From a virus: a stretch of DNA of 64,000 nt. Below the pieces are notes generated by a model that was not told the DNA's origin, did no database searches, and was given only the letters and a program-made list of their open reading frames with translations. A program made the position numbers and the translations under genes. The stretch is taken from the IMG/VR virus record IMGVR_UViG_3300045988_119876, positions 1-64,000 of that record. One strand, given 5' to 3'. Positions 3,684 to 64,000 of this stretch are shown here, piece by piece (position 1 is the first letter of the stretch; each line of letters opens with the position of its first letter).

Positions 3684-4195
3684 AAAAGATAAAAGTAGAC
3701 AAAGTGATATTATATTACATGGATCGGGTAGACCCTGACGGGAACCTATACCGGTTCTATGTATATAAAGGCATGGCATCTGAAATAGAATACTTTTGCA
3801 CGGAAAAGGCAGGCAATATGACTATACCAATCGGAGAAGGAGAGTATGTCAAGATTGTACCAAAAGAAATAGAGAAAATACCAGTAAGGGGATATAGGAA
3901 GCTTACTGGAATATGGAATCGTGAAACATGTAACGGGAAGGGATGGTATAGGCTTTTTAATTATTTCAAATACAAGCCGACCCTATGTTATTTTAAAAAA
4001 GCGGGACATGGTGAAAATGGGAACACAAGATACGAAATATCATTATTTAACAACATTATAAATGTGACAAGATATTTTAATCTGTGGAGAATGAAGCCAG
4101 GAAAGTATGCTATGGTAACAAACGAGTGTGGCGCCTTGGATGTTATAAAAGAAAAATTTGACAACATAAATATAGTGGAATATGGATCTGAATGA
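3680..4195 (+). CDS. hypothetical protein (171 aa)
   Basis: ORF track; aaggag RBS; ATGA overlap. Confidence 0.55.
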   Translation: MKKIKVDKVILYYMDRVDPDGNLYRFYVYKGMASEIEYFCTEKAGNMTIPIGEGEYVKIVPKEIEKIPVRGYRKLTGIWNRETCNGKGWYRLFNYFKYKPTLCYFKKAGHGENGNTRYEISLFNNIINVTRYFNLWRMKPGKYAMVTNECGALDVIKEKFDNINIVEYGSE

Positions 4196-6279: not shown

Positions 6280-6728
6280 AAGGAACGATAGTAACAGGTA
6301 GCCTGATTGTATTCAGCGACGGATTTGTTTGGAAAAGATTGTCCAACGAAAAAGCCTACAAGATATGGGTGTCGGCAGAAAATGAAGATTTTGAGTTATA
6401 CAAGGTGAGGGTAGATGATGAGTCTGAGTCATTGATAGAGAGTCTTGAAGACTTGCAGGACGCCTTTAAACAAGATCATCATGTATGTATAGAAGTAGGT
6501 AAGCTACCATATAGCATTGGTTTAAATTACTTACGAAATCTGCAAGAGTTATCGGTGGAAGCTGTGGAGTATCTAACAGGACCAAAAGAATATAGCAGGG
6601 AACAGGCATTTAACATCATTCGAGAGTGGGCTAAAGAGTTTACAGAGAAATATGGGAATTATGATTTCGATGGATCATACTATGATGAAATAGATGAATT
6701 TATTGATAAAAAGTTAGGAACTATTTAA
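6276..6728 (+). CDS. hypothetical protein (150 aa)
   Basis: ORF track; ggagga RBS; ATGA overlap. Confidence 0.55.
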   Translation: MKGTIVTGSLIVFSDGFVWKRLSNEKAYKIWVSAENEDFELYKVRVDDESESLIESLEDLQDAFKQDHHVCIEVGKLPYSIGLNYLRNLQELSVEAVEYLTGPKEYSREQAFNIIREWAKEFTEKYGNYDFDGSYYDEIDEFIDKKLGTI

Positions 6729-6739
6729 AATATAAAGAC

Positions 6740-7549
6740 ATGGAAGACGATCTTATTACAACAAAAGAAGTAGGCGATTATCGCATTAAAGTGTATTATT
6801 GTCATGATTCAGAATGCCCTATAACTAATTGGGGTTTGTTTGGGTCATTCTTTTTTGAATACTCTGATACGCATCGATTGCATGATGAATGCAATTGGAA
6901 AACTTTCTTCTACGATAACAAGCATGATCTTAGAGATGTTATTGATGCTATTGTAATGAAGCATATAAAACAGAAAGACATTGTAAAATATTTAAAGAAA
7001 GGGGAAGCGAATGAGATCTCATTTACATACAACAGAGGTGACAATGTATGGGAGTTGAAGCATAAGACAAGTCCATATATAGGTCAAGAGTTTTTTCCAA
7101 GTGATTTGACGGACTTTGATTACAGAGGAGAATTAATAGAGGATCTGGATGACGAAGATTTGTTAGATATCATATCCAAATACGGAAAAGATGTGGTGGC
7201 TATAGAGTGGTCAACAAGGGGTTATAGTCAAGGTGATTATATAAAAGGGATAGCATACGTTACAAAAGAAAAATATGATAATGAAGTCTGCGACAAAGAA
7301 GGAGACTGGAAAGAAGATTGTGCCAAGATTATAGATGATGAAGTAAAGTCCATAGGTATGTGGATGTGGGGAGATGTAAAAGGGTACGTTCTTGAAAAGA
7401 AGGTAGCATTTACCAAGAAATACGAAGATGAATCCAGGGAGAATGAAGAGGGAGAAGAATGGGAAGAGGTTGATTCCTGTTGGGATTGTTATATGGAAAC
7501 AGACGAATTGATAGAAGAAATAATGGAAGAACATAACTTGAAAGAATAA
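6740..7549 (+). CDS. hypothetical protein with acidic C-terminus (269 aa)
   Basis: ORF track. Confidence 0.55.
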   Translation: MEDDLITTKEVGDYRIKVYYCHDSECPITNWGLFGSFFFEYSDTHRLHDECNWKTFFYDNKHDLRDVIDAIVMKHIKQKDIVKYLKKGEANEISFTYNRGDNVWELKHKTSPYIGQEFFPSDLTDFDYRGELIEDLDDEDLLDIISKYGKDVVAIEWSTRGYSQGDYIKGIAYVTKEKYDNEVCDKEGDWKEDCAKIIDDEVKSIGMWMWGDVKGYVLEKKVAFTKKYEDESRENEEGEEWEEVDSCWDCYMETDELIEEIMEEHNLKE

Positions 7550-7553
7550 GGAG

Positions 7554-7946
7554 ATGGGGAGATCACGAGGGTGTATTATCAGAAAGAACACCAAAGAATT
7601 AAGAGAAAGCCTCATGTCATTAAGATATCGTTGGTTGGTGAAAGAAAAAGGAGCTAATTGCATAGTCACAAATCCAGAAATATTAAAATACATGGAATTG
7701 CGAGAAAAATCAGTAGAAGCATGGAAGGATGAAGGATGGATAGATTGTGGAGCCAATGATGATATGTTTCTGGCTATAGCAGCATTAGCAAATAATACTG
7801 ACTTAGGTCAATGGCTGATAGTGACAGACGCCACAGGAGACAGGTGGGTAGAATGCGAAGAGCCCAGGTTCAGGGGAGACGCGGGCTGCATTACATGGCG
7901 TAAGGCTACAGTAGATGAAATTATTGAACATTTTAAAAACAGATAA
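7554..7946 (+). CDS. hypothetical protein (130 aa)
   Basis: ORF track; aaggag RBS. Confidence 0.5.
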   Translation: MGRSRGCIIRKNTKELRESLMSLRYRWLVKEKGANCIVTNPEILKYMELREKSVEAWKDEGWIDCGANDDMFLAIAALANNTDLGQWLIVTDATGDRWVECEEPRFRGDAGCITWRKATVDEIIEHFKNR

Positions 7947-40534: not shown

Positions 40535-40984
40535 TTATAATTCCACATAGGTATCAATAGGGACAAAGCTGCCAATTGTACTTATCTTATATATTGAATG
40601 AATAAGGTGAGTACTTGGACTTAATTTCAGTTGAGGTACTTGATTGGATCCTTCTGTAATAAAGAAATAATAAAAAACGTCTCCAATCGTAAACTGTAAT
40701 ATAATATCACCTGTTACCTGTCCTTCATTAAAGTAAGCCTGGATATATTGTCCAGAATTTGATATCGTACAACTTATAGGATTACCGCCCATCGTACATA
40801 CCTTGCTATTATTAATTTCATCTAAAACATAGGAAGCCGCCATAGTTGCTCCATTAGATCGGTATCTACAACCAAGAATAGGTACAGGATTTCGCCATGT
40901 GGTTGTAGGGGCCGAAATCGAACAAGCAAAAACAGGGATCTTGACGCCGGCAACTGTCTTAATATTTTCAAATCTTCTTCTCAT
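40535..40984 (-). CDS. hypothetical protein starting MRRRF (149 aa)
   Basis: ORF track; ATG verified at 40984. Confidence 0.5.
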   Translation of the reverse strand: MRRRFENIKTVAGVKIPVFACSISAPTTTWRNPVPILGCRYRSNGATMAASYVLDEINNSKVCTMGGNPISCTISNSGQYIQAYFNEGQVTGDIILQFTIGDVFYYFFITEGSNQVPQLKLSPSTHLIHSIYKISTIGSFVPIDTYVEL

Positions 40985-41175: not shown

Positions 41176-41607
41176 TTAGCATACAATGATATCAAAAAAA
41201 AACTCTCCGGCGCCACCTACATATCCATTTTGACCATTTTTAAATAAATAGCTATTAGCTTTATTAAAAGCGTAATCTGTATTACTGGTATCATATTCAA
41301 GATACGCATTCTGATTTTCACGCCCCCAATAATCCTTTTTAATAGTTCCAATATGAGAACTATCTTGTGCAAATATATTGTCTATTTCTCCATCCTTACC
41401 CCAACGAAATGTGCCAATATATTCGGTGGCTATAACAAAACACACTTTATCTACAAGAGCTATTCCATTGCATAGATCATTGGAATATCCTTTATTAGAC
41501 CAATTTTCTTTTGTATATAATCCTCCATCTACATGTTGGATGTATATGCCTTTATTGATTATAAGCGAGGGATTTACCCCCATCCCTATTTGAAATCTTC
41601 GTCTCAT
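41176..41607 (-). CDS. hypothetical protein starting MRRRF (144 aa from ATG 41607)
   Basis: ORF track ORF trimmed to internal ATG; an intrinsic terminator lies upstream of it. Confidence 0.5.
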   Translation of the reverse strand: MRRRFQIGMGVNPSLIINKGIYIQHVDGGLYTKENWSNKGYSNDLCNGIALVDKVCFVIATEYIGTFRWGKDGEIDNIFAQDSSHIGTIKKDYWGRENQNAYLEYDTSNTDYAFNKANSYLFKNGQNGYVGGAGEFFFDIIVC

Positions 41608-41822: not shown

Positions 41823-44800
41823 CTATTTGTAACTAACATCATCGTCTCCTTCCGAATCAGGAGTGGCGCCGATGAAGAACATCATTGACTTGTTGTTCGT
41901 CTGCTGCCACCAATTATAGGCGCGCGCTACGTCTTCCGGCGTCTTGATATTATACCATTGTTTGATAAACGTCTGTTTGGCGAGTTGCCTAAATAACTTA
42001 GACTCTCCTTTGTATGTACCGGACGTCACCTTATCAAGTGAATAATTCCTAAGATCGGTAAGATCCTTAAGTTTCCGTCCCATAACAAACGGGTCGTTAA
42101 TGATATCTACCACATTAAGCTCCATAATAAACGGCATCTGTGAAGCTATTTCATTTATGGTTCTGAATCCAACGTAAGATCCAAATTGAGTAAGCCAACT
42201 TTCTTCGTTTTCATCATCATCACGCCATCCGGCAAGAAGCATGGATACGGCTTGCATGATAAGGAACGTGCCTGCATAGACACTGAGGCGTTTGAGATTA
42301 GTTTTTTCTACCTCATTCATATTGTCTTTATTTTCGTTCCAGGCATCTATGATGTTTTTCATACCAGACTCGGAAGCCAGGCTAAATGTTTTGGCTATCA
42401 TATTCTTTAACGTAATTGACAACCCTTCCTCTTCTTGCATTGTTTGGAAATTGAAGCCACGTCTTTTCCACAGACGTTGAGCCGCCAGCACCAACCATCC
42501 TCGGTGGGCGGTCATGAACCTGGCTATCCAGTTGCGCGATGCGGCAGTTCGGTTTTCTTCATTCAAAGATCCGTTACATATCTGCGACAAGCTACGGACT
42601 TGATTCCTGGTTATAGCCATCTGGGTTTCAACTTCCTCAACAGTAACACCCGATCCTGGCTTTACAACCACCTTCCCATCCACGACGTCTACCATACTCC
42701 ATAAAGTACGATCTTTTAATGCATTCCATTCTCTTTTTATGGTACTCTGTTCTTTATTGCGTTCTTTTTCCATCTTGAAATCTTGGAACGTGTAGAACCG
42801 ACCTTTGTAATAACGAACATTGTCCATAGTAGCAATCATAACCTGCGGATCAAGAGGGTAGTTCAGGATTTCCATAAAAGCATACATAGGTGAACGCATT
42901 AAGGTCCTGGCCACTCTATTGTATCCGGCACCATACATACGATTTCGGATATTGAATATCCCCATTCTCTCACCTATGACATATAATTTGCTTTTCCTAT
43001 CTATGTCTCCGGTTTCTGCTATACAAGATGGAGCAAGGCGTGAAAATTCAGCCGATGCGTATTTAAGGGAATCTTTACTTATATACTGTCCTACGGCAGA
43101 TTCCATGATGAGGTTGATATGACCTGTTAAGGCGCCGGTAGCTGCCACAAACGGGGACAGTGCCAAGTTCATGACCGACATAAATCTTTCAACAGCCATC
43201 ATAATTCTTGTAAGGTCTACCGTATATCCTCCGATGTTCACCGTAAGTTTTTTGGTGTTCATCCTAATGCCATAATAATGATCGTTGAAGAAGTCCCTGA
43301 ACATCTGATATGCTTGGGTTGCTTCAGCCTTTTTACCACCTTCAAATTGTTTATTCAGTAACATCTGCTCCAGTCCTTGAGCGAGCTCTATAGACTTCTG
43401 CTTTTCGTTGTATAACGATGACTGCATCATAAGCATCGAATAAGAGTAGCCAAAATCGTGAGATACATCATCTTGGTTCTCCAATTCATATATGTAGTAT
43501 TTAGGTATAGACCTAAGTCTGTCTTCCGGATCATACACTTCTCCTTGCCTGGTTTTACCGTATAGAGAATCGTCTACTCTGTCCAGGCACAGATCTGATA
43601 CAAAATTACGAACCGTATTTTTGAAGTTAATACCCAATCCTTCCATACGTTCTATGTCTTGTTTTGATATCTGTGGAATAGCATACAGGTTCGGGCTCTG
43701 CTCTTTGTATAGATCAAGGGATTGTCTTTTTATTTCCTTGAGTTTTTGAATCATATTCCACTGCTCTACGTTTTTAGTAGCAACTTCATTACCGTCAGCA
43801 TCATACTTGATACCAAAGTCATTGAAATACGATTCATCACGATATAGGCTTTTCTTAGGCATTCGATGACCATACCCATGATCTTTTACATAATCAGGAT
43901 TACGGCCGCTATTTTCGGCTTCAGATTCAGCCACCCATGCCCTTGCAGGGTCGAAAGACAGGTACGATATGTCCATGCCATAATCTTGGGTGGATGTACC
44001 GTTTTGTACGTCCTTAACCATCTGCGCCACATCTATCTCACCTCGACCTATTTTGTCGATCATAGCCGCATATCCGGTAGGCGCCATGCGTTTATAGTAC
44101 GAAAAGACCTGGCTCCTGGCAAATTCATTAACAATAGCATTAGCTTCTTCTATGCCCTCTTCTCTTGTATTATTTAAAAACAAGCTGGCCATCTTAGCAT
44201 TAACAGCATTCCTAAAATCTCTACCGTCTAATTCTTTGCTTATACCAAGCTTTTCTGACAGGTAGTTGGTTTCAGATACGGTAAACAAATATCGGTTATC
44301 AGCAGCCTTAAACAGCTTATCCCTTAAAGCCTGAATCCTTTTTGCTTTCTTCGCCGTAGTATGACGTTGTACGAACTTCCATTCCACTTCCTTGGAGTCA
44401 GCAAGAGCATTTAAATAAGACTGATTTACTTCGTTTTCAGCCTTACTGCTTTTAGTAAGGTACTTATCAATATCTTCAAGACCCACCATCTTAGCATAAT
44501 CTATCAAAATAGCGTAATCGGCTTCAATAGCTTCAGATGCGGCCCTAAAAGCATCTCTTTCAGATGAGGTAAATGTCGCTTCGTTAATCTCTCCGATATC
44601 AGCCACATCGCGATTGTTTCCGATTATTTCCTTGATAATAGCCTTATTTTTTTCTATATCTTTCACAATAGAATCCACGTCAGTCGCATCTCTATCGCTT
44701 GTCGTAGAACTAATGATATCATGCGCCATTTTGAGATACGAAGCCTTGTTGTTTGATTCGGTGCGCGCTGACTGTTCCGATTCTATATCATTCCAAAACC

Positions 44801-47800
44801 GATCGTTGAATGACAGGTGACCTCCCAACATAAGTGTCTTCAGCGCAGCTTCTCCTCCTGACTCGTTCTGAATCGTTCTCAATTTTTGCAAAAACGATTC
44901 TGATACGACATTAGTGACATTATTTGATTCCTTTCTCCAAACTTCATTTATAGCTTGTATTTCTTTGGCCATCTTAAGTTGGTCGCCGGTTTTTTCCACT
45001 CTCCTGGTTCCTACATATATGTATTCTGAAGCTGCTTCTTTACGTTGTTTACGAAGCAGTCCTTCTTCTTCGTAATTGCTGCTTTTAAAATAGGCAACTT
45101 CATCAAAATTACCACCGCTATCAATAAAAGGCTGCCTCAATATCCGCTTCTGCCGAGAAAGAGCATTAAGGTATTCTTTGGTTGTTTGAGAAACCGGATG
45201 CCCTAATTCTTCTTCAGCCTTTTTGTATATGGATTCCATTCTTGTGGCATAACTTTCGCTAAATTCCAGTTCCGAATTTTCAGCATCCCACTTTTCCATC
45301 TGCTCTGTATAGATCTTTTCCTGCTCGATGGTAAAAATATCGGTATTAACTCTATCAGACGATGGTTTGAATTTAGCGTTTTCAGTAACCGTATTTCCAT
45401 CCTTGTCAACTACTTCTCTTTTAAATACGTAATTACGGTTATTGTCAACCACATCACCAATTTCTTCTTCTGATATCTCTATGTTCATGGCAGTCGCAAA
45501 CGCTCGCATCTGCGCCAGCTTCTTATTACGATCGTATTTAGCCATATCAAGGGCACTACGAAGGTAATTAGAAGTTTTGCCGTCTACTTTCTGAAGCAGT
45601 TTTTCAAATTCAGATTTGTTAAAACCATGCTTTTTCGCATATGCCAGGAAATCGGATATGGCGGGCTGGGCATTCACCATCGCATTGTAATTGTCTTTGG
45701 CAATCATAGCTCCAAGAGCGTTATTGAACGGGCTGGAAGAATGCTCTAATATACCGAACCACCTACTTATCCAAGAAACATCGTGTTGAACCTTATCAAA
45801 GAACTCTTTTACTCTCTTTACCTTATCTGCCGGCACATGAAGTTCGTTCATTAACTTGTCAAGCAACGTACTTTCATCAAGATCTTGTACTGATTTAATA
45901 TCAGACTGAATACCATTGATGTCGGCAATGACGGTATTGATCCTATTTGTATAATCCTGCTTTTCATGTTCATCAAATTCGGTACTTCTGTTACGGATAT
46001 ATCCTCGAAGATCGTTCATGATCGGAAGAACCTGATTGTTGATAATATCTACGTTCTTTCGATCATTGGTATTGAAGTGAAGCTTACCGTCTTTGGTATC
46101 ACCATGAAGGATGGTGTTTACCACATTACTTAAGTATCTGACCTGAGCTTCGGCTGTGGAGATCATGCTGTTCATGGCAGCCGCCATCTCATTCTTGTCT
46201 ATTTCGGTCTCTACCTTATTTATCTTATCTTCTATGGTCTTAAGCTGAGCAAGAGTCATAGACGTAGTTACAGCCCTATCAGAGCTTATCTGACGTAAGT
46301 CTCTTAAGGTTTTTCTTAGTGATCTGATCTTAGACTCAAGAAACTTGTTCTTGTTCATAGAAGAAAGAGAGTATAATGTAAAATCATTATCCTTTAACAG
46401 AGAGGTGTCAAATCCTTTATCTATGTCGGTAATAGCAAGATCGCGAATGTTTTTAATAACATTATTCAAATCTTGTCTTTGGGTAGATAAAGCTGATTTA
46501 AGCCAGCTTACTATTCCAGAGAGAAGCTGCCGGACGCGCCCCAGGAAGGAGGTGGGCTCTACCGGCGCCTGTGCTGTGCCGGTCTGCATCTCCCTGGCAA
46601 GGATCTTTCCAAGAATTTCTCTCCTAACAGCATTATCAAGCTCGGATCCTTCATATACCTTACCGTATGTATTATAATACTGACCTGCATACTGGTTCCA
46701 CTCTTCCGTACCTTCTACATCTTGCAGAACAGCCTCAACAGCATTCTGATCTCTGTATGCCTCTACAAGGAAGTGGGATGTTTCTTCTACTAAATCAGAT
46801 AAAGTAGCATCTTCACCAACTGCTATTACGTTATTGGCAATATCCGCCAATGCCTTAGCAGAAGGTTCATGCCCGTATTTGGTTTGGTACTTCTCTATAT
46901 AATCGGTCATACCTATGACACTAACGCCAAGAGTTTTCAGTATCTCGACAATAGAATTTCGTTGATCACGTTCCTCTTGGCTATAATCTGATACGATCTT
47001 AGCTTTAGTATCAGCGTAAAGATCGTTGTCTTCTAATATGAATGAAACTACAAGCGCATCAAAGTGATCGTATTTAGCATCCAATTCATTGTATCTTCCA
47101 GACTTAAGATCGCTCTTTATCTGCTCCTTGCTAACTCTTTCTGTTCCTCCGGTGGCGAGCCTCATAGTTACCTTACTATTATCCAACGAGCTTATGGTTA
47201 TCATACCTTGGTCGTTCATGGAAACATCTGAACCAAAATGATTACGGAGCTCGGTGTAGGATAAGGCTGAATTGAAAAGTCTAATTTGTCCTGTATGACC
47301 TTCTCCTGTAAGATAATAGCTTCTTGTTTCAGGATCGAATATCTTAGATCCGGACAAAAGACCTTTCTTTATAAGGTAGTTAATTATACCACCTTTTGTT
47401 GATAAAGAAGTAGAAGCAGAAGCGGTCATGACCGGTATAAAAGATTTGGGATTATTAAGAACATACTTTCCAGCCTTGTAAGTAATGTCTGCCACGCCAT
47501 CCACGGTAGATTCTTGAACGGTGCCTGATAAGAATCCTATTCTAATATCATTTCCGCCAGAGCGAAGAGCTTCTCCGTAATCTTCAAATAATTGACTACG
47601 ATCGTTCATGAAAAACAAACGAGGCTCTCCGGTCTGATACGTTACACCCACAGGATTAGAATCTGTCTGTGGTAGCTCTTCTGGGCTAAATATCTTAAGA
47701 CCGTCTTTTATAACCATATAATTAACACCCTTATCCTGTACCATAGATACGGGAGTGAAGTCCGAAGATATAGCATCTTGTAGATACTGCCCTGCGTCTA

Positions 47801-48245
47801 TTCCCGGTCCTTCCGGTACGGAAATACTTGACGGGACCATAGCATCTACCAACATAATATTATCACCCAGATCTTGGCTGTAAAATCCAAAGCCCGATTC
47901 TCGGATTTCATAAGGTGCATCTGATTTTGACACAAGAACAGGGTTACTCATCTTAGAAGCCTTATCCAGCACCCTTTCCCTGTAGGCTTCTGGGATAAGA
48001 TCGATGTTGGATTTTACCTTATTATAAGCCTGTTTGTTGATAGGCACTCTCTTTCTCCAGTCGCCAAAAGCCTTTAAGAACTTGTTGGAAAATACGGTTT
48101 TAAAAACAGTAGTAGCCCGTTCCCTGTTCTCCATAAGGGGAATAGATGCTATTTTATCAAACAACATAGACCTGTCCCCTGATCTGGTAGAGACAGAAAC
48201 AACTTTCTTTTTATTATCTCTTTTAATAATACACGTTGATGTCAT
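41823..48245 (-). CDS. giant hypothetical protein (2140 aa), probable virion or ejection protein
   Basis: uninterrupted 6.4 kb ORF; location in leftward structural block; no catalytic motif recognised. Confidence 0.7.
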   Translation of the reverse strand: MTSTCIIKRDNKKKVVSVSTRSGDRSMLFDKIASIPLMENRERATTVFKTVFSNKFLKAFGDWRKRVPINKQAYNKVKSNIDLIPEAYRERVLDKASKMSNPVLVSKSDAPYEIRESGFGFYSQDLGDNIMLVDAMVPSSISVPEGPGIDAGQYLQDAISSDFTPVSMVQDKGVNYMVIKDGLKIFSPEELPQTDSNPVGVTYQTGEPRLFFMNDRSQLFEDYGEALRSGGNDIRIGFLSGTVQESTVDGVADITYKAGKYVLNNPKSFIPVMTASASTSLSTKGGIINYLIKKGLLSGSKIFDPETRSYYLTGEGHTGQIRLFNSALSYTELRNHFGSDVSMNDQGMITISSLDNSKVTMRLATGGTERVSKEQIKSDLKSGRYNELDAKYDHFDALVVSFILEDNDLYADTKAKIVSDYSQEERDQRNSIVEILKTLGVSVIGMTDYIEKYQTKYGHEPSAKALADIANNVIAVGEDATLSDLVEETSHFLVEAYRDQNAVEAVLQDVEGTEEWNQYAGQYYNTYGKVYEGSELDNAVRREILGKILAREMQTGTAQAPVEPTSFLGRVRQLLSGIVSWLKSALSTQRQDLNNVIKNIRDLAITDIDKGFDTSLLKDNDFTLYSLSSMNKNKFLESKIRSLRKTLRDLRQISSDRAVTTSMTLAQLKTIEDKINKVETEIDKNEMAAAMNSMISTAEAQVRYLSNVVNTILHGDTKDGKLHFNTNDRKNVDIINNQVLPIMNDLRGYIRNRSTEFDEHEKQDYTNRINTVIADINGIQSDIKSVQDLDESTLLDKLMNELHVPADKVKRVKEFFDKVQHDVSWISRWFGILEHSSSPFNNALGAMIAKDNYNAMVNAQPAISDFLAYAKKHGFNKSEFEKLLQKVDGKTSNYLRSALDMAKYDRNKKLAQMRAFATAMNIEISEEEIGDVVDNNRNYVFKREVVDKDGNTVTENAKFKPSSDRVNTDIFTIEQEKIYTEQMEKWDAENSELEFSESYATRMESIYKKAEEELGHPVSQTTKEYLNALSRQKRILRQPFIDSGGNFDEVAYFKSSNYEEEGLLRKQRKEAASEYIYVGTRRVEKTGDQLKMAKEIQAINEVWRKESNNVTNVVSESFLQKLRTIQNESGGEAALKTLMLGGHLSFNDRFWNDIESEQSARTESNNKASYLKMAHDIISSTTSDRDATDVDSIVKDIEKNKAIIKEIIGNNRDVADIGEINEATFTSSERDAFRAASEAIEADYAILIDYAKMVGLEDIDKYLTKSSKAENEVNQSYLNALADSKEVEWKFVQRHTTAKKAKRIQALRDKLFKAADNRYLFTVSETNYLSEKLGISKELDGRDFRNAVNAKMASLFLNNTREEGIEEANAIVNEFARSQVFSYYKRMAPTGYAAMIDKIGRGEIDVAQMVKDVQNGTSTQDYGMDISYLSFDPARAWVAESEAENSGRNPDYVKDHGYGHRMPKKSLYRDESYFNDFGIKYDADGNEVATKNVEQWNMIQKLKEIKRQSLDLYKEQSPNLYAIPQISKQDIERMEGLGINFKNTVRNFVSDLCLDRVDDSLYGKTRQGEVYDPEDRLRSIPKYYIYELENQDDVSHDFGYSYSMLMMQSSLYNEKQKSIELAQGLEQMLLNKQFEGGKKAEATQAYQMFRDFFNDHYYGIRMNTKKLTVNIGGYTVDLTRIMMAVERFMSVMNLALSPFVAATGALTGHINLIMESAVGQYISKDSLKYASAEFSRLAPSCIAETGDIDRKSKLYVIGERMGIFNIRNRMYGAGYNRVARTLMRSPMYAFMEILNYPLDPQVMIATMDNVRYYKGRFYTFQDFKMEKERNKEQSTIKREWNALKDRTLWSMVDVVDGKVVVKPGSGVTVEEVETQMAITRNQVRSLSQICNGSLNEENRTAASRNWIARFMTAHRGWLVLAAQRLWKRRGFNFQTMQEEEGLSITLKNMIAKTFSLASESGMKNIIDAWNENKDNMNEVEKTNLKRLSVYAGTFLIMQAVSMLLAGWRDDDENEESWLTQFGSYVGFRTINEIASQMPFIMELNVVDIINDPFVMGRKLKDLTDLRNYSLDKVTSGTYKGESKLFRQLAKQTFIKQWYNIKTPEDVARAYNWWQQTNNKSMMFFIGATPDSEGDDDVSYK

Positions 48246-55927: not shown

Positions 55928-56150
55928 TTCCTACCGTTATTAGTTACGTTCTGTTCTTACCTTCCTTTTTTTCTATAATCCCTTCCTGAAACTAATATTG
56001 CAAACTTAATAAAAATAATCCAAAAACAACGAAAGTCTGACTTTTCTTGTATGTTGCTGATATATGTGCATATATAAGAAAAGTGAGACTTTCACAAGCC
56101 TCACTCCCCAAATTATAACTATGAAAAAACTATATATATGTACACAAAAA

Positions 56151-58409
56151 TTACCTACATTCCAATTTATTAAGATCATCCAATTCAGGCTTGCTTACGG
56201 TCATGTCTTGCGTCAAGCCAGATCTGTTTTGGTATGGAGCGTAATCGGTTTCTACCGTCTTAGCCTTCTGAGTAGAATCGTATTTCACCTCTGATTCGGT
56301 TCCTGTCAGATTTTGGTAGATAGAGCCGGAACTACTCTCGCTTACTTTAGACCATATCTTATTACCTACTCTTATAAAATTATCATAAATACCTTCGGCT
56401 GTTATAACACCATCTTGCTCTACGATATTAGGGCCCGATTTTTCTTTTAACAGATACGGGTGCCTGGTGTAAAAATAGTGTTCAAAATCATTCTCGGCAT
56501 ACGAAGGGTCATACCTATCCAAATAAAACAATTTTGATAAAAAAGGGTCGGTGCTGGTCATGCTATAATCAAACAACATCAACCTGTCTTTTCCAGATAA
56601 AGATAATTCTATTGATTTCAAAATATCAGGATCATCAGAAATAAGACCCAAAGATGGACCAGATTTGAAGTCAAGATACTTATAGGCATTATCATATAAT
56701 TTTGTTTTATGGAGTTTGTTGTCAAGGTAATATTGGTATAAATCGAATAAGGATAATGGGTTTTCGCTATCTTGTTTTTTGTTCATGTACCGACTAAATT
56801 CCCGATCCACATCCGCGTAAGAAACATCAAGTACCGCCGGGTGCCCAAACGCCATCCTGGTCATTATCATGTCCTCCGTGTTCTGAGAATCCATGAACGA
56901 TCTGACGTATTTTTTAATGGAATCCATGAGCGTATTATTATCTACGTTCCGTACTTTCTCTTTATCCAAAACGCCGTTCTTAAAACAAGATTCAGGATAT
57001 ATTTTAGCAGGAAAGTGAGTTAGGTTGTGCTTGGCTAACACTGTTGATATTTGATACATCTCGTTAAGATCATCTTTGCTGATCCTTTGATATAGATTAT
57101 CTCCTACCTTAAGCAATGAATGTTTCTCAAATGCTTCTACTGGGTCTATATTTGATTCAGAATAAACGATATTCAAATTATCCATATATTCCGGCAATAA
57201 TCCAAAATAATAGTCTGTACTATCACCAAGAACATCATCTATAGAAGATGCCAGCGTTGGAGCATAATTTGCATCATTATGCCTGGCCACATAAATATCA
57301 AGATCCAGCATCAAATTATCTATCTTATTCAAAGATTCTTCTGTGCCATCATAAGTTTCTGACGCCCCTATTATATCTATGCCAAACCACGTACAAGCCT
57401 CTTCTATATCCCATATCATGCTTCTTAAATCAGATTCGGTGTCGGCATTAGCCCTATTTAAATAAGCTGATATACGAGCTCTTAGGAACTCTATTTTGCC
57501 AGGATTGTAATAAGACAGATCTTGTAGCTTAGACAAGGATCTTCTCTTGCCTTCTACCACATCATCCCCTTCTATGTTTATTACCGGAATCTTATTCGTA
57601 GATAAAAACTCATCAAACATAGATTCGGCAAATTCTTTATCAGAAACAAATTTCTCAACCAGTTCAGGATATGAGTTTCTCAACGATTCAAAAGCAGATG
57701 AAAATTCAGAAAATTTTTTTATGCCGGCTACTGTTTTACGCATAGCATAATAAAGCTCAGAAGGATTATATGGTACTTTTTTACCAAATTGGTTAAACAC
57801 TCCCTCCTTGTAAACAATAGGACCATACTGATAGTCAACAGACATAAAATAATTATCTTTTTCCCTATCATGTTCGTTATTGGAATAATCCAATAACTTC
57901 CTCATGGATGTCGAAACTTCATTAAGAACAGAAGGATCAGATAAGATTCTACTTATCTCTGTTTCATTATACAAGCCTGATCTTCTTAAATTCTGCTCAT
58001 TCAGTATCAAACTACCATCTACATAAAAATAATGAAGAATGATGTTGGATAATGATGGTGCCGTATAAACACCATAGGTAGATAAAAGAAAATCTCTTAC
58101 ATCCTTAACATCCTGATCCGTTAGAGGATCGGCAAAATAAGTTTGACGCTTCATATACGACAGCACGTCTTCTAAAAGAGGTTCACCATTGGAATCGGTA
58201 TTAAACATCTCCCCTGGAGCCGGGTTATTCCAATGACCGTAATACGACAAAAAACCAAGAGTGTAAGCCTTAGCCCATACCTGAAGAGCCCGCTCGCTGT
58301 TTCCTAATACTTTTAAAGCACTTTCGTAAAGAACGGAAGGCTCCCCGTTAGGAGCCTTAACCCGTTTTATTTCATTTTCCTTTTTTTCTATCTGACATTT
58401 GACACCCAT
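56151..58409 (-). CDS. large hypothetical protein (752 aa), probable structural protein
   Basis: ORF track; ATG verified at 58409. Confidence 0.7.
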   Translation of the reverse strand: MGVKCQIEKKENEIKRVKAPNGEPSVLYESALKVLGNSERALQVWAKAYTLGFLSYYGHWNNPAPGEMFNTDSNGEPLLEDVLSYMKRQTYFADPLTDQDVKDVRDFLLSTYGVYTAPSLSNIILHYFYVDGSLILNEQNLRRSGLYNETEISRILSDPSVLNEVSTSMRKLLDYSNNEHDREKDNYFMSVDYQYGPIVYKEGVFNQFGKKVPYNPSELYYAMRKTVAGIKKFSEFSSAFESLRNSYPELVEKFVSDKEFAESMFDEFLSTNKIPVINIEGDDVVEGKRRSLSKLQDLSYYNPGKIEFLRARISAYLNRANADTESDLRSMIWDIEEACTWFGIDIIGASETYDGTEESLNKIDNLMLDLDIYVARHNDANYAPTLASSIDDVLGDSTDYYFGLLPEYMDNLNIVYSESNIDPVEAFEKHSLLKVGDNLYQRISKDDLNEMYQISTVLAKHNLTHFPAKIYPESCFKNGVLDKEKVRNVDNNTLMDSIKKYVRSFMDSQNTEDMIMTRMAFGHPAVLDVSYADVDREFSRYMNKKQDSENPLSLFDLYQYYLDNKLHKTKLYDNAYKYLDFKSGPSLGLISDDPDILKSIELSLSGKDRLMLFDYSMTSTDPFLSKLFYLDRYDPSYAENDFEHYFYTRHPYLLKEKSGPNIVEQDGVITAEGIYDNFIRVGNKIWSKVSESSSGSIYQNLTGTESEVKYDSTQKAKTVETDYAPYQNRSGLTQDMTVSKPELDDLNKLECR

Positions 58410-58410
58410 A
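58383..58410. repeat. 28-nt exact repeat copy 1 (tttttctatctgacatttgacacccata), covers the start of the 752-aa gene
   Basis: identical to 59033..59060. Confidence 0.8.
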
Positions 58411-58435
58411 ATGATTAACTTTTTTGCAAAGTTAA

Positions 58436-58966
58436 TTATAAAACCGACTTATACAATAACGGATCCCAAACTCCTTCTATATAAATCTCTGGAAAACTTA
58501 AACCGCCATCACGAAGAGTAGTAACTTTCAAACTGGGAATATTAAAAACAGTGCAAACATCACCAAACTCACGGCTCAACTTAATAGCATTTCCGCTGTT
58601 ATCAGCTTCATAATAACAATAACAATAATTTTCATTAATGTTTGGATCATATTCGTACCAATATGTTAGATCCTGTATATGATCTTCTATATTACCAATT
58701 TTATTTTCACCTAATATAAAAATACCATTATTACTATGGTGATAAACTATAGATTCATAACCACCATGATTCCAATCACTATTAAACATTATATAACTTT
58801 CTTCGGAATCATTATCTTTTAATACAGGTCCTATATGTATATGAATTTTATTAAACTGACATACATAAGATCTTTTTCCTCCAAGCCTTTTTATATCCTC
58901 ATTAGATAACTTATTATAACATCCTCCCACGAAATTATCCGCAGCATTAAAAAATCTCCTTCTCAT
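58436..58966 (-). CDS. cassette gene B, hypothetical protein starting MRRRF (177 aa from ATG 58966)
   Basis: ORF track; preceded by an ~80-nt copy of the 3' end of the giant gene. Confidence 0.55.
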   Translation of the reverse strand: MRRRFFNAADNFVGGCYNKLSNEDIKRLGGKRSYVCQFNKIHIHIGPVLKDNDSEESYIMFNSDWNHGGYESIVYHHSNNGIFILGENKIGNIEDHIQDLTYWYEYDPNINENYCYCYYEADNSGNAIKLSREFGDVCTVFNIPSLKVTTLRDGGLSFPEIYIEGVWDPLLYKSVL

Positions 58967-59035
58967 ACTCAACACTCCTTGTTTAACTTATTTATCGAAT
59001 CCGAATTATCAGAACCTTCTACGAGATTCTTATTT
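58954..59035. repeat. ~82-nt repeat copy 2 (about 95% identical to 59666..59747), including a pseudo C-terminus ...NLVEGSDNSDSINKLNKEC* and the ATGAGAAGGAGA start
   Basis: direct alignment of the two stretches shows 4 mismatches. Confidence 0.8.
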
Positions 59036-59060
59036 TTCTATCTGACATTTGACACCCATA
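59033..59060. repeat. 28-nt exact repeat copy 2, encodes a 9-codon remnant MGVKCQIEK* of the 752-aa gene start
   Basis: identical to 58383..58410; similarity continues weakly for ~15 nt more. Confidence 0.8.
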
Positions 59061-59099
59061 GTGATAAATATTTTAGACAAAATACTATAAAAATAGAAA

Positions 59100-59678
59100 T
59101 TATGAAACTTCTATTTCATAATGCGAAGCCTTTGTTTCAACTATTAATCTTCCCTCTCCTTCAAACTCAACGCTATTATCTCCTGGACCAGTAACAAAAG
59201 GGAAATCAGATACGGATGTTACATAATCTTTATCACCACCAGAAAAAGACTGACTTTTACTTTGTTTGTAATTGATAGTCAATTGTGTTTTACCTATCTG
59301 AAGAGTTCCAGATAAATTTTTAGTATAAGTGGTGGTAGTTGTAATATCCCCATTTTTATAACAATACATTATAAAGGTGGTAACCGGACTCTTTTTTATA
59401 TTACTATCCGGACCTTCATGATAAGATTCATTTCCTCCAAATATGCTATAAATGTGACAATAGGGACCGACTCTTTTACTTGAAGTTTTAGCCTTATTCT
59501 CGACTCCTTTCAAAGATATAGTAACCTTACTCTTGTATTCAACATCCTTCCAATTACAGACTCCTTCACTTACGTTTCCAACAAACCCGTCATCAACATA
59601 AACCTCTATATTCCCCTGCTGATTGGTCTTCAACTGATACTGAACAAGACCTGAAACATCTTCATATCTCCTTCTCAT
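59100..59678 (-). CDS. cassette gene A, hypothetical protein starting MRRRY (193 aa from ATG 59678)
   Basis: ORF track; ATG overlaps the giant-gene stop (TGAGTATG). Confidence 0.55.
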   Translation of the reverse strand: MRRRYEDVSGLVQYQLKTNQQGNIEVYVDDGFVGNVSEGVCNWKDVEYKSKVTISLKGVENKAKTSSKRVGPYCHIYSIFGGNESYHEGPDSNIKKSPVTTFIMYCYKNGDITTTTTYTKNLSGTLQIGKTQLTINYKQSKSQSFSGGDKDYVTSVSDFPFVTGPGDNSVEFEGEGRLIVETKASHYEIEVS

Positions 59679-59747
59679 ACTCAACACTCTTTATTTAACT
59701 CATTTATCGAATCCGAATTATCAGAACCTTCTACAAGATTCTTATTC
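59666..59747. repeat. ~82-nt repeat copy 1 = authentic 3' end of the giant gene plus start of gene A
   Basis: see 58954..59035. Confidence 0.8.
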
Positions 59748-62700
59748 CTATCTATCTCTTCCTGGCTCATGTTGCTCATCATATTTTGTATTTTTCTACC
59801 AGATTGAGATAAAGAGCGGATGAATGCGCTGGAGCTTATCTTAACTCCAAGATCCGGTTTCGCCCTAAACGCTTCACCGGTACTGATATTATACAAATCA
59901 TACACACCTGAGTTCATATAGAATTTATATATCCAGTTTCCACCAGCTTTTTTGTACCCTAATTTGGTTAGCTCAGTTACACTCATACCAAATTTAATAC
60001 CATTACGACCCATTATCTTCTCCGGTATAGGCTCTACCTTAGCCGGAACAGATGTATATGCTTCATCACCGCCGTACAGGAAATAAGGGGTTGTTACCCT
60101 TGATATGTGAGTAAGCGGCTCTTCGGATATACGAGGTTCGTCTTTCGCAGCCTTAGATCCTTTCCTTAGATTGGATATTCTAATAAAAGGATCGTATGTC
60201 AAAAAGGTTAAGCCGTATTCTACTTTATAACCTGATACGCCGTTAAGGTCCCTTATAGCCTTAGTCGTATGCGAGTGATTGATGGTGTCTATACCATACC
60301 TTGATTCCATATCGGTCATAATGCTATTAACCTCATCTCCCTCTACATAAACCTCTTCTCCTTCCGGAATAGAGGTTATGCCGGAAGCCCTTCTAAGTAG
60401 CCATAAAGTAACTTCAGCAATGTCAGAGAACTTATCTCCGTTCTTTCTATAGTTATCTACTCTTCCTTCTTGAGATCCAGGTAATTCGACATTTCTTTCA
60501 ACTTCGACATTTGTTCTGGATTGTCCTTTGCCTTCTCCATCTCCCTTTTTATCGCCATCTTCCTCAGTGCGTACTGCACCGCCTTCTGCACTTCCTTCTT
60601 TTCCATTATTTAAAATATTATCTGATTCTGACTCTATAGACTCCACAACAGCATCATACTCTGGAATGCCACTAAGGAAATCTGCTACGTTATTCAAAAA
60701 CTCTATTTTTTCCTCGTTTGTCATATCAAGGCTTTCCATAGGCTCCCATATGGCAGGCAAGTTATTTGATTCTATTGCAGTAGAAACATCTTCTACAGTT
60801 TGATTATCTACCGTAGGCAAAACTTCAGAAACCAAACTATTGATGTCAGATTCCATTTTTTCTACTTCCTCTTTTGTGCCATATTCTTTTAGGGTATCCA
60901 TACCATTGACTCTAAGAGAATAATTCAAAGCCTTGCTTGGAACAAAATTAATATATTTCAAAAAGTTTTTCAACTCTGATATAATTTGTTCGTCAGATCT
61001 TGGCCCAACATAATCCGCTACTACCTGATCCGTTTGAGAACGAAGCCAAGAAACGTATTCATCTAAGGTCTTACCTCCCTTTTTAGAAGGAGTGGATATT
61101 TTATCACCTACTGTTCCTTTAGGTTCTAATCCCATTTCCTCCTTAAGACTTTTTGGATTACCTCTATCACGAAGAAACCTCAAATCGCCTCCTACAATCT
61201 TCCTTGCTATAAAATCAAAAATATTAGCATAAGGCGGCAATCCTTCTTTTTCTATATGAGATTCTATTTCGTTTAACATAAGAGAGAAGTTTTTCCTGGA
61301 GGTACGCTTCTTGCCAGGTAAAGACTGCGCAGCTTGTGCCGCAGGAGCCGGCTGAGTTGATGGCGTCGGCTGAGTCGCCTGGACAGGCTCTTCCTCTGGC
61401 ATTTCCTCTTCGTAAATATCCACATCTTCCTTGGAAGTAACGGTCTTACCCTCATCAGAGAAAGGAAGATCATCCTCTATAAGCGACTTAGGGCTGGAAG
61501 ATGATTTACCAAACTGAATCCTGATCTTAGGAGCGACAAACATCTCACCTTCGAAATCTATTCCAGATTCTACTTCAGACGTCACAATGTCTTTCACGCT
61601 CCTACTTCCATCTTCTACCCACTTAACAACATCAGGAACTGTAGATAATTTTTCTATAGCCTCACGAGCTTTTCTAAGCCCTGAAATAGGATTCAAATAC
61701 GATACTTGATACGAAGCCGGATCAAGACCTAACTTGGTTAGATACGCATTAAGATCTTGTATATCATCTTGACCCATCTGTAGCAATTCAGAATCACCGG
61801 ATTCAAGCAGCATATCTATAAAAGACATCCATTTCTGCCCTTCCTCTGATTCCACAGAACGTAGGCTAACTGGGAAAAGATAATTAAGACCGTTTTTACC
61901 TTTGATGACAACTACCGGAACTCTTACATTTTTGTAATTATTCCCCTTGTCATTTAATATAGAATAAGCAAATGGGAAGCCTGTGTATTTAGATCCGTTC
62001 TTAAGCACGACTTTACCATTTAATACATATCCGACATCAGATACTTTTTCAGCACCTTTTTCGGTAATAGGGAGATTTTCTACCTGGCCATATCCTTGAC
62101 CGTTCACCTTCATGTTAAACACCGGTCTTCCGGGAAGGGTCTGGGCAACAACATGCGTGCCGACGCCGATGGTAGCCGACCGGCCGGCGTCCTTCTTCCA
62201 CTTGTTAAAAGCCGTTCTTCTTATTTTACTTATACCATCTATGCCTCCTGTATCAGCTTTTACAACAGAAACGAATCTGTTCCCACTCATGACCTTGATA
62301 ACCATATTGGATACCAGTTTATTCTCAGCAGATTCTATTCTTTTTTTATCGCCGGACTGAACAGCGTCATTGTATTCGGCAAAAAGAGACTGATTATAGG
62401 TATCATTTACATCTATTTCGAGATTAACCTTATCTCCTTTTTTCAAAGAAGATAATGCTTCCTGATCTATTTTATCTACCTCATTCTCTCCGAATCCGAC
62501 ACCTGTTCTGTACGGAACCAATTCATCTGAATCAAGACGCTTATAAACCAAAGAATAGGAATTACCCACGTCCTGAATAGACACGTCTGTGTAACGGTTA
62601 AGAACACGAGCCGATTCTTTGTCTATAGACCATCTCGCATGATAAGGCAATTCAATTATAGTAGCCGTTTCTCCACCTATATTAAGAGAATACCTTTTAG

Positions 62701-64000
62701 TGCCATTAGCGTTCGTTTCAGAGCTTATTTGAATAGGAACCAATGATTTTATAGAAGATATAAATTTATCGGCTCTAAGACCTGCAATTTCATACCTTTC
62801 GTTGCCATCGTTGGATATTCTTCTAACCATCAACGTCTCTGGATTCTGGGCGCTATCTATGTTAGCTCCAGGCGTATTATCGGATTCATCTAACTCATTT
62901 ACAAGAGAATCTATATTGGTATCATCCTCCCCAAAATTACTTAACGTAGATTCGGAAATACGACCTTTATCAATAATCCTGTTTTGTTCGATATAAGGAA
63001 GGAGATCTGTGATGTTTCCAACCTGGCCAAGATCTTCTATGGTAAATACCGAATCGGCAAGCTTATCTTCGTCAACCTTCTCCCCTTTATCCCGTCTGTT
63101 CATTATATCAACATACGAAGAAATAGCATCATCAAGTTCCTTCCTTTGATCTGGTTCTAAATTGGATTTAGCCATATCAATAATAGCTTTATTATCCTCA
63201 TACACAGATCTCGGACTTGTAAGCCTATCAGCCTTCTCAGATAATGATTTTATGAGATTAACAGGACTGTCACCCAAAGATGATACATAATCATCAAAAT
63301 CTTGTTTGTATTTATCATACACATCTTTTTCTCTCGCAGTAAGAAGATCGGCATTGCCTGTATATAGTTTATCAATTATAGACTGCCTTACGGCCGGAAC
63401 CATAATAGGATTATCCATAGCAGCCTCATAATCTTCATCCGATACAGACTCCGTAAGCGGTGACTCTTTTATATCATCTTCTGCTTCCCTCATCCTATCT
63501 TCCCTTACTTTATCAAGAGCATGCATAAAAGCCTTGATAGTCCAAGCTTCGTCTTCCGAAATCTTACCTTCTGACACAGCTTGATCTACTACCTCATCAG
63601 TATCATATTCACCAACTTTATTAGGCTCTGCAAAATCAGGAACCTTATCATCCCCCTTATAAGGAGTAGACCATAGAGAAGACAGCGCTTTTGAAAATCC
63701 CCTGTTTTCCTCAGCTAAGAATCTTTTATCAAGCATCTTGGACAAGAAGTTATTCATATTCCTATAGCCCATCAAACTCCTTCGGTATTCATTTACCAAG
63801 GATCTCATGGCTTTGTCTTTGGCTGTAAACTTCTTTTCCTGTCTTGATTTTACATTAAAATAATCATCAAAAGCCACAAGCGTATCATAGGCTTCTATTA
63901 CATCTTGTGAACTTATGGGAGAAAGAGGAGATGATAAAACAGATTCGGTTTTACTTACCAACTCTTCTATCGAAAACTCTTTTCCTATTAACGTTGATAA
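59681..64000 (-). CDS. giant hypothetical protein, at least 1439 aa, 5' end beyond the window
   Basis: track start 63961 is a TTG; the 13 codons upstream to the window edge are open and read LSTLIGKEFSIEE, so the gene probably continues. Confidence 0.7.
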   Translation of the reverse strand, partial: LSTLIGKEFSIEELVSKTESVLSSPLSPISSQDVIEAYDTLVAFDDYFNVKSRQEKKFTAKDKAMRSLVNEYRRSLMGYRNMNNFLSKMLDKRFLAEENRGFSKALSSLWSTPYKGDDKVPDFAEPNKVGEYDTDEVVDQAVSEGKISEDEAWTIKAFMHALDKVREDRMREAEDDIKESPLTESVSDEDYEAAMDNPIMVPAVRQSIIDKLYTGNADLLTAREKDVYDKYKQDFDDYVSSLGDSPVNLIKSLSEKADRLTSPRSVYEDNKAIIDMAKSNLEPDQRKELDDAISSYVDIMNRRDKGEKVDEDKLADSVFTIEDLGQVGNITDLLPYIEQNRIIDKGRISESTLSNFGEDDTNIDSLVNELDESDNTPGANIDSAQNPETLMVRRISNDGNERYEIAGLRADKFISSIKSLVPIQISSETNANGTKRYSLNIGGETATIIELPYHARWSIDKESARVLNRYTDVSIQDVGNSYSLVYKRLDSDELVPYRTGVGFGENEVDKIDQEALSSLKKGDKVNLEIDVNDTYNQSLFAEYNDAVQSGDKKRIESAENKLVSNMVIKVMSGNRFVSVVKADTGGIDGISKIRRTAFNKWKKDAGRSATIGVGTHVVAQTLPGRPVFNMKVNGQGYGQVENLPITEKGAEKVSDVGYVLNGKVVLKNGSKYTGFPFAYSILNDKGNNYKNVRVPVVVIKGKNGLNYLFPVSLRSVESEEGQKWMSFIDMLLESGDSELLQMGQDDIQDLNAYLTKLGLDPASYQVSYLNPISGLRKAREAIEKLSTVPDVVKWVEDGSRSVKDIVTSEVESGIDFEGEMFVAPKIRIQFGKSSSSPKSLIEDDLPFSDEGKTVTSKEDVDIYEEEMPEEEPVQATQPTPSTQPAPAAQAAQSLPGKKRTSRKNFSLMLNEIESHIEKEGLPPYANIFDFIARKIVGGDLRFLRDRGNPKSLKEEMGLEPKGTVGDKISTPSKKGGKTLDEYVSWLRSQTDQVVADYVGPRSDEQIISELKNFLKYINFVPSKALNYSLRVNGMDTLKEYGTKEEVEKMESDINSLVSEVLPTVDNQTVEDVSTAIESNNLPAIWEPMESLDMTNEEKIEFLNNVADFLSGIPEYDAVVESIESESDNILNNGKEGSAEGGAVRTEEDGDKKGDGEGKGQSRTNVEVERNVELPGSQEGRVDNYRKNGDKFSDIAEVTLWLLRRASGITSIPEGEEVYVEGDEVNSIMTDMESRYGIDTINHSHTTKAIRDLNGVSGYKVEYGLTFLTYDPFIRISNLRKGSKAAKDEPRISEEPLTHISRVTTPYFLYGGDEAYTSVPAKVEPIPEKIMGRNGIKFGMSVTELTKLGYKKAGGNWIYKFYMNSGVYDLYNISTGEAFRAKPDLGVKISSSAFIRSLSQSGRKIQNMMSNMSQEEIDRNKNLVEGSDNSDSINELNKEC

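Follow-up and report, generated by a model that had tools for sequence, protein, structure and literature searches.

Two unrelated small genes, here called cargo genes A and B, lie in tandem between a giant late gene and a gene of 752 amino acids (aa) in the stretch of viral DNA analysed here (the window: 64,000 nucleotides (nt), positions 1 to 64,000 of IMG/VR virus record IMGVR_UViG_3300045988_119876). The window holds a bi-allelic accessory-gene slot in its fused, 'both' state, and we are highly confident that an allelic slot and an illegitimate merger of its two alleles together account for the tandem. At the edge of the slot where the 752-aa gene begins, some related genomes carry an insertion element that encodes the RNA-guided nuclease TnpB. 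A break made by TnpB completes what we consider the best explanation of the locus as a whole (polymorphic slot, allele swapping, illegitimate merger and TnpB-made break), and this complete explanation we regard as evenly balanced between right and wrong.

By its sequence, the source phage of the window belongs to the Epsilon crAss-like phages: over positions 56000-64000 it has 94% identity with crAssE-Sib (OR575929, 151 kb), a human gut phage of this group for which the genus Epsilonunovirus has been proposed. The giant gene of crAssE-Sib (2208 aa, annotated 'structural protein') is followed by A alone and then by the 752-aa gene, and pairwise BLAST of the two genomes leaves the window with one additional 650-bp unit, composed of a relic of the giant-gene end, B and the untranslated region (UTR) of B. 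All genes of the locus lie on the minus strand, in the order giant-gene 3' end, A, stub, relic, B, 752-aa gene. The features are as follows, TnpB-1 being the TnpB found at the start of the 752-aa gene in relatives and TAM its putative transposon-associated motif:

59681..64000, minus strand: giant late gene, 3' part; open reading frame (ORF) still open at the window edge, 2208 aa in crAssE-Sib
59666..59746, minus strand: left-flank repeat, copy 1, functional; the giant gene's last 21 codons with TGA, 2 nt, and A's MRRR codons
59100..59678, minus strand: cargo gene A, 192 aa; sole cargo in crAssE-Sib
59027..59093, minus strand: right-flank repeat, copy 1; A-linked 3' UTR and the 752-aa gene's start, cut off after codon 9
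59033..59060, minus strand: 28-nt exact repeat, copy 1; inferred TnpB-1 TAM TAT (59060-59058) and 25 nt of predicted target (59057-59033)
59030..59059, minus strand: dead stub ORF MGVKCQIEK*; the 752-aa gene's first 9 codons, then TAA
58954..59034, minus strand: left-flank repeat, copy 2, a non-coding relic of the giant-gene 3' end; the native 69 nt before B's ATG and B's first 4 codons
58436..58966, minus strand: cargo gene B, 176 aa; sole cargo in 67 related contigs
58377..58443, minus strand: right-flank repeat, copy 2; B-linked 3' UTR and start of the intact 752-aa gene
58383..58410, minus strand: 28-nt exact repeat, copy 2, where the real 752-aa gene begins; TAT (58410-58408) and 25 nt
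56151..58409, minus strand: 752-aa gene, conserved right flank; intact

A repeat search of the window recovered, at the places claimed, both repeat pairs on which the original prediction for this locus had been built, including the 28-nt exact repeat. The direct repeat (58954-59034 and 59666-59746) is 77/81 identical (95%), which agrees with the place and identity given for it and corrects its length from about 82 to 81 nt. The second repeat, of 67 nt (58377-58443 and 59027-59093), has 78% identity and contains the exact 28-nt core TATGGGTGTCAAATGTCAGATAGAAAAA (minus strand) at 58383-58410 and 59033-59060; the upstream copy of TATGGGTGTCAAATGTCAGATAGAAAAA runs into TAA and produces the dead 9-codon stub MGVKCQIEK* at 59030-59059, as had been foreseen. 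A opens with ATGAGAAGGAGA, 2 nt past the TGA stop of the giant gene; the prediction had let the two overlap, which they do not. The giant gene is present, and the figure of 1426 aa quoted for it is that of an ORF cut short by the window edge. For its placement in a structural module the only support is the annotation given to the giant gene by the crAssE-Sib depositors, and neither flanking gene has a family match in PHROGs or Pfam. The prediction had also read the locus as one unit occurring twice in tandem with two unrelated cargo genes. The cargo genes are indeed unrelated, since A and B have no similarity beyond an N-terminal MRRR in BLASTP or in hhalign profile-profile comparison, but in place of a duplicated unit the tandem is in all probability an illegitimate fusion of two alleles, and both orders of it exist.

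The illegitimate junction in the window lies at about 59033/59032, with a 2-3-nt ambiguity in a run of A. The long junction, in which ...CAGATAGAAAAA is joined to TAAGAATC, retains 81 nt of the giant gene's end and is the type found in the window and in the A-B contigs, and the short junction, in which ...CAGATAGAAAAA is joined to TTCGATAAATG, retains 47 nt and is the type found in the B-A contigs. No other junction type was seen in the loci examined or in a metagenome scan, which returned the two known types in nine further contigs from other projects. In B-only genomes the giant gene's end reads GATAGATAGAAATAAGAATCTCG (longer stretch GAGATAGATAGAAATAAGAATCTCG), and the B-type GAGATAGATAGAAATAAGAATCTCG has AGATAGAAA in common with CAGATAGAAAAAAAGG of the 752-aa gene, a microhomology of 9 nt. 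The relic bears the B-type C variant together with one private substitution (GAG to AAG) that is seen in the relic only. Microhomology at the short junction amounts to ~1 nt only, yet on the side of the 752-aa gene this junction ends at the same point as the long one, and both junctions fall within the A7 homopolymer GAAAAAAAGG.

Eight IMG/VR contigs, and four metagenome contigs of other projects, have the long junction in identical form. Recurrence base for base in contigs of other projects indicates that the tandem is real, recurrent and recombining, and not the assembly artefact that had been named among the outcomes that would refute the prediction. In L360 (an ERZ1027087 contig) the short junction occurs in the A-B order, at about 6560, an arrangement that shows junction modules recombining with either cargo on either side.

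The population was surveyed by IMG/VR searches with A and with B, which yielded 148 loci in 142 contigs (the B matches being the best 80 of 152), and the contigs were sorted by BLAST against the parts of the window. The slot holds B only in 67/142 contigs and A only in 45; eight contigs have A-B with the window's junction and eight have B-A with the shorter junction; B with an insertion sequence was found in seven, A with an insertion sequence in five and partial content in two. The conserved left flank GTGTTRAGTATGAGAAGGAGA gave 129 matches, each continuing into A-type or B-type sequence, and no third cargo type followed it in any of the 129. A and B are thus alleles that replace each other at a single position across the phage population, the outcome for which an alignment of the same locus in relatives had been proposed, with 45 A-only and 67 B-only contigs on the two sides. 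A-type and B-type phages occur together in human gut samples.

Linkage between the cargo and its surroundings was compared in 112 single-allele, element-free genomes. The r2 between cargo type and single-nucleotide polymorphisms (SNPs) is 1.0 for SNPs in the cargo's own 3' UTR, 0.70 for those 4-5 nt before the ATG of the 752-aa gene, 0.08-0.40 for the last two sites, and 0.02 for the first SNP inside the 752-aa gene (26 nt in). On the other side, r2 is <= 0.11 for SNPs of the giant gene that lie within its last 100-500 nt. SNP pairs inside the 752-aa gene have a mean r2 of about 0.65 across 1 kb, and this gene falls into two deep haplotypes, about 8% diverged (85 vs 27 genomes), each of which is found with both cargo types. 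On trees of the flanks, cargo type requires 21-25 parsimony (Fitch) switches, compared with 35.6 +/- 2.7 when labels are shuffled. Because cargo is unlinked from the flanks and switches repeatedly on the flank trees, the reading of the locus as a site of cassette exchange is supported. The earlier proposal of a cassette-exchange hotspot with conserved flanks and variable cargo is in this way upheld by alleles at one position, the drop of r2 at the edges and the 21-25 switches, and the term 'hotspot' appears to hold relative to the adjacent 752-aa gene only. Separately, the giant gene's 3' 1.5 kb was seen to have quick linkage decay and two very variable segments.

An additional 1.25-1.4 kb is present in the slot in 12/142 contigs. 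Three TnpB proteins were identified in and around the slot, TnpB-1 (410 aa), TnpB-2 (379 aa) and TnpB-3 (407 aa), each matching Pfam OrfB_IS605 and Cas12f1-like_TNB above cut-off; a PDB sequence search for TnpB returned nothing but a weak match to a designed nuclease. The TnpB-1 and TnpB-2 elements of the slot contain a single ORF each, and the crAssE-Sib annotation lists TnpB genes and no TnpA. Whether the cargo is A or B, the TnpB-1 element follows it and is inserted precisely where the 752-aa gene starts, as ...CACTAT/GGTGCAAAATAAC...TTTTTCATAACAT/GGGTGTCAAATGTCAG, where slashes mark the element ends. A search for TnpB-1 loci (best 80 of 89 matches) gave at least 75 copies at about 20 sites, of which at least 16 copies are at this slot; one example of a TnpB-1 gene is 6664-7896 of locus L007 (IMGVR_UViG_3300045988_153876). 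The left flank ends in TAT at all ~20 resolvable sites, and the right end of the element is always ...CATAACAT. Its 3' region has a conserved multi-stem consensus with ~100% pairing and few compensatory changes among 32 unique, closely related copies, and Rfam gave no match for this region.

The insertions of TnpB-2 follow TTAT and occupy two other positions of the slot. TnpB-3 is 94% identical to a crAssE-Sib copy upstream of the muzzle gene, and its boundaries in L346 and in crAssE-Sib could not be brought into agreement. As side observations on these elements, many TnpB-1 insertions (L150-L224, e.g. L167, L177, L181, L194, L224) lie at TAT/G start codons, where the terminal AT of the CATAACAT end rebuilds the downstream ATG, and several TnpB-1 sites have a common left flank, GTAAAATAATAT, which resembles a general gene-start motif of these phages. 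Damage to the cargo beside such elements was seen in three loci: in L149 (5936-7555) A has lost its start, by a 48-nt deletion between GTTGA repeats, and its 3' part beside the right end of TnpB-2; in L138 (4609-6498) A is split by a degraded TnpB-2; and in L346 (2300-4000) B is split beside TnpB-3, with codons 21-92 lost.

In the IS200/IS605 family the guide corresponds to the flank at the right end of the element and the TAM to the motif at its left end. By analogy, the target of a TnpB-1 located in the slot would be TAT-GGGTGTCAAATGTCAGATAG of genomes that have no element, and TAT-GGGTGTCAAATGTCAGATAGAAAAAAAGG is the predicted TnpB-1 target at the start of the 752-aa gene. The 28-nt exact repeat consists of TAT, the inferred TAM, and 25 nt of this predicted target, and in both types of junction the stub stops at predicted target position 22-25. 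ISDra2 TnpB cuts 15-21 bp from the TAM, and TnpB is described as a homing nuclease acting on vacant sites in two reports (PMC10690162, PMC10055086). Hybrid UTRs, B-type in their 5' part and A-type in their 3' part, with two crossover points, were found at 11/16 slot-borne TnpB-1 loci and in 0/112 element-free genomes, a pattern that short co-conversion tracts would yield.

The following origin is proposed. In this phage species the slot that separates the giant late gene from the 752-aa gene has two unrelated alleles, each travelling with its own 3' UTR. Shared by both alleles are a left flank, made up of the giant gene's 3' end and the MRRR codons, and a right flank, the beginning of the 752-aa gene, and homologous recombination within them frequently swaps the alleles. 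An A-type genome would have been broken ~25 nt into the 752-aa gene and joined, via the AGATAGAAA microhomology, to the giant-gene 3' end of a B-type genome, a merger that would leave the 9-codon 752-aa stub and the 81-nt giant-gene relic with B's native upstream region; the retained 69 nt before B's ATG may be why the haplotype is viable. Recombination between the 81-nt or the 28-nt copies would then resolve the tandem to B-only or A-only, and such a return to a single allele is what we infer. The break would most likely have been made by the RNA-guided TnpB of a TnpB-only IS200/IS605-type element inserted at TAT/GGG of the 752-aa gene start, whose guide would match GGGTGTCAAATGTCAG... and which, in a co-infected cell, would cut element-free genomes ~15-25 nt downstream. 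What was observed comprises the two alleles, the tandem in both orders, the junctions, the linkage break and the TnpB insertions; that TnpB is active, and that it gave rise to the break and to the hotspot, is what we infer. Whether TnpB contributes to the hotspot is in our judgement an even call; that it made the particular junction of the window is rather doubtful.

Several points weigh against a TnpB-made break. No TnpB gene or element remnant was found in the 64-kb window, and 0/8 A-B contigs are among the TnpB-1 loci listed (best 80 of 89), so any cutting would have had to take place in trans or in the past. The activity of TnpB-1, its TAM and its cut positions are deduced from insertion sites, the boundary of the element at the slot is ambiguous over 4 nt (ATGG), and the end of the stub lies 1-4 nt beyond the ISDra2 cut range. 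The A7 run alone could favour template switching, and a 33-nt deletion could turn the long junction into the short one, in which case there would be one independent event only. The two deep haplotypes of the 752-aa gene partly account for the sharp linkage break, the 11 hybrid-UTR loci may come from only two events, and the slot may collect insertion sequences because it is dispensable.

The most serious competing explanation, to which we give somewhat less than an even chance, keeps the same slot and the same illegitimate merger and dispenses with TnpB: slippage or template switching would have occurred at the A7 run and AGATAGAAA, and the elements would simply accumulate in a dispensable region. 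Such an origin fits the position of both junctions inside the homopolymer, the 9-nt microhomology with the giant gene's end in B-type genomes, the lack of TnpB in the window and in the A-B contigs among the loci listed, and the presence of three insertion-sequence families at several slot positions, some of them destroying A or B, as would be expected of a permissive region. It accounts less readily for the short junction, which with so little microhomology still has the common end point on the 752-aa side, for the location of that end point 22-25 nt from the exact TnpB insertion site of at least 16 contigs, and for hybrid UTR haplotypes that are found only beside the element.

Three further explanations fare much worse. 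Tandem duplication of an ancestral cassette whose copies diverged into paralogues A and B would suit two genes of similar size that both start with MRRR and have repeated flanks, but it is very improbable in view of the lack of any similarity past MRRR (BLASTP, hhalign) while the flanks are 95% identical, of the many genomes, the majority, that have either A or B, not both, at this position, and of relatives with a 69% identical 752-aa gene in which the slot is empty. A chimeric join of co-occurring A-type and B-type strains during assembly is hardly credible: the two types co-circulate in the human gut and the repeats could mislead assemblers, but the junction sequence is in neither parent and spans only the 9-nt microhomology, it is the same base for base in contigs of different projects, and the relic has a substitution of its own. 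A dedicated site-specific cassette system (integron-like, shufflon-like or resembling a diversity-generating retroelement) that uses the repeats as recombination sites, suggested by cassette-like units with conserved boundaries, deserves almost no weight, as the repeats are mere gene ends, the boundaries have no significant inverted repeats, no integrase or recombinase lies beside the slot in crAssE-Sib, whose authors found no integrase in the genome, and the sequences upstream of MRRRF genes are not conserved in other lineages.

The allelic slot with merger and a TnpB-made break can be compared with known systems. In hyperplastic (moron-type) phage regions, as here, unrelated genes occupy one position between conserved genes and are swapped by homologous recombination in the flanks, and the content of the slot varies across the genus in the present case too (empty, A, B, antirepressor-like genes, small-gene arrays). 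Unlike such regions, the slot also occurs with both alleles fused in either order with defined scars, its edge coincides with a predicted target site of an RNA-guided nuclease, and A begins 2 nt after the giant-gene stop. A sigma-70 promoter and terminator scan of the cargo, made with a tool that has no Bacteroidota-type promoters, gave nothing above shuffled expectation. A phage plasticity region with allelic cargo is a kind already known; fusion haplotypes with exact scars are new.

A second comparison is with marker exchange by homing endonucleases in T-even phages and with homing by TnpB of IS200/IS605 elements (Meers et al. 2023). In both, as at the slot, a nuclease gene is present in some genomes at a site that is intact in others, the cut (here predicted) falls beside the insertion point, and the sequence flanking the element is recombinant, in keeping with co-conversion. 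The present case differs in that cleavage is predicted and crAssE-Sib has no annotated TnpA, and in that the outcome is exchange and fusion of neighbouring cargo, not spread of the element alone. The cargo itself recalls the internal proteins of T-even phages, described as diverse defence proteins with only a capsid targeting sequence in common. In both cases unrelated small proteins at variable loci have only a short N-terminal motif in common, here MRRR[FY], which has 5 residues; this likeness of A and B is analogy, not homology, and A and B are known here from their genes alone.

Phage genomes are mosaics, and the breaks that start mosaic joints are seldom identifiable. For one abundant gut phage that is still uncultured, hundreds of natural genomes combine a two-allele slot, both fusion orders with their scars, a sharp linkage break and a TnpB element at the slot edge. 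If TnpB cutting is true, the locus would document, in nature, an RNA-guided nuclease that helps viruses to exchange genes, and such a nuclease would shape accessory-gene diversity in one of the human gut's most abundant phage groups; the TnpB target site can be read directly from the sequence, which makes the idea testable. Some Epsilonunovirus genomes carry two TnpB genes (Babkin et al. 2024), and beyond that mention of TnpB genes no earlier report of slot exchange at a TnpB edge in crAss-like phages was found in the literature. That fusion scars in crAss-like phages coincide with a site of TnpB insertion and predicted targeting is new. A broader proposal, that in a subset of Epsilon crAss-like phages TnpB-only elements with guides to TAT/G gene starts of element-free relatives cause homing breaks in co-infection and thereby recombination hotspots, and that at this slot such breaks drive the exchange, fusion and decay of MRRR[FY] proteins, possibly virion-delivered effectors, is speculative and on present evidence unlikely.

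Both cargo genes are under purifying selection, with dN/dS of 0.26 for A and 0.19 for B. Neither has a family match in Pfam, PHROGs or NCBIfam, and AlphaFold2 models built on shallow alignments gave pLDDT of 32 for A and 30 for B, with no confident structure. A word-indexed protein search with A and B returned only relatives at >=62% identity, and an exhaustive profile search with A returned remote homologues of 180-210 aa, unannotated, that start with M(S)RRR[YFC]M; beta-propeller matches of A in the profile search were set aside, as they look like low-complexity matches. The suggestion in the original prediction that A and B are host-range or accessory virion proteins is a guess.

Four genes of the window start with MRRR[FY], namely A, B, 41176-41607 and 40535-40984, the last two being just downstream of the other giant virion gene, and each of the four follows a giant virion-type gene. 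Relatives (L350 1086-3948; L349; L353; L365 4001-5214) contain unrelated MRRR[FY] genes and tandem arrays of two to four. The motif is kept at the protein level only, as Arg codons and upstream DNA differ among lineages, and the same variation by lineage led to rejection of the MRRR codons as a DNA-level recombination site or a ribosome-binding site. MRRR[FY] may be a targeting or docking tag. This class of variable proteins in Epsilon crAss-like phages is new and previously unremarked; the tag marks its members, and their virion location and any anti-defence role are testable.

In more distant relatives, orthologues of the 752-aa gene hold the same position down to 22% identity. The slot holds B-A beside an 80% identical orthologue and B split by TnpB-3 beside one of 76% identity. 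At 69% identity (L347, L348, L355, about 3974-4001) it is empty, the giant-gene stop TAG being followed by 26 nt and the ATG. At 52-54% identity the slot contains arrays of two to four unrelated genes, all starting with MRRRF and including Gly_rich_2 proteins, and at 47% identity (L351, L352, 2906-3934) it contains KilA-N/ANT or Bro-N/ANT antirepressor-like genes. In L351 a TnpB lies directly downstream of the 752-aa gene.

The wider neighbourhood in crAssE-Sib comprises a muzzle protein, a tail lysozyme, three large 'structural' genes, the slot, a repressor and an antirepressor, with a second giant virion protein further on. The counterpart of this other giant virion protein in the window is 41823-48245, which matches a PHROG 'virion structural protein'.

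Some minor variants were also noted. One A-B genome (L008 5193-5301 and L087, contig IMGVR_UViG_3300045988_119050) has a giant gene that ends in a tandem duplication of 28 nt (TTCGATAAATGAGTTAAATAAAGAGTGT); the TTCGATAAATGAGTTAAATAAAGAGTGT duplication begins at the TTCGATAAATG breakpoint of the short junction, and the C-terminus of the giant protein becomes ...KECFDK*. The giant-gene-side breakpoint of the short junction was considered as a second TnpB cut and rejected: it lies 17 nt from an opposite-strand TAT, inside the 15-21-nt range looked for, but the chance expectation of such a match in this AT-rich DNA is ~40%, and no element is known there. Public protein sets (P0007-P0016, P0036-P0051, P0022) include many in-frame internal-deletion variants of A and B, either variants or assembly products, and one B(1-63)::A(140-192) chimera, either a real variant or an assembly product. 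Finally, the T6 run after B's fourth codon (window 58950-58955) is T5 or T7 in 9 of ~90 B-type matches (L230, L234 and others), a change that would shift the frame of B and could reflect homopolymer sequencing error, pseudogenes or on/off variation.

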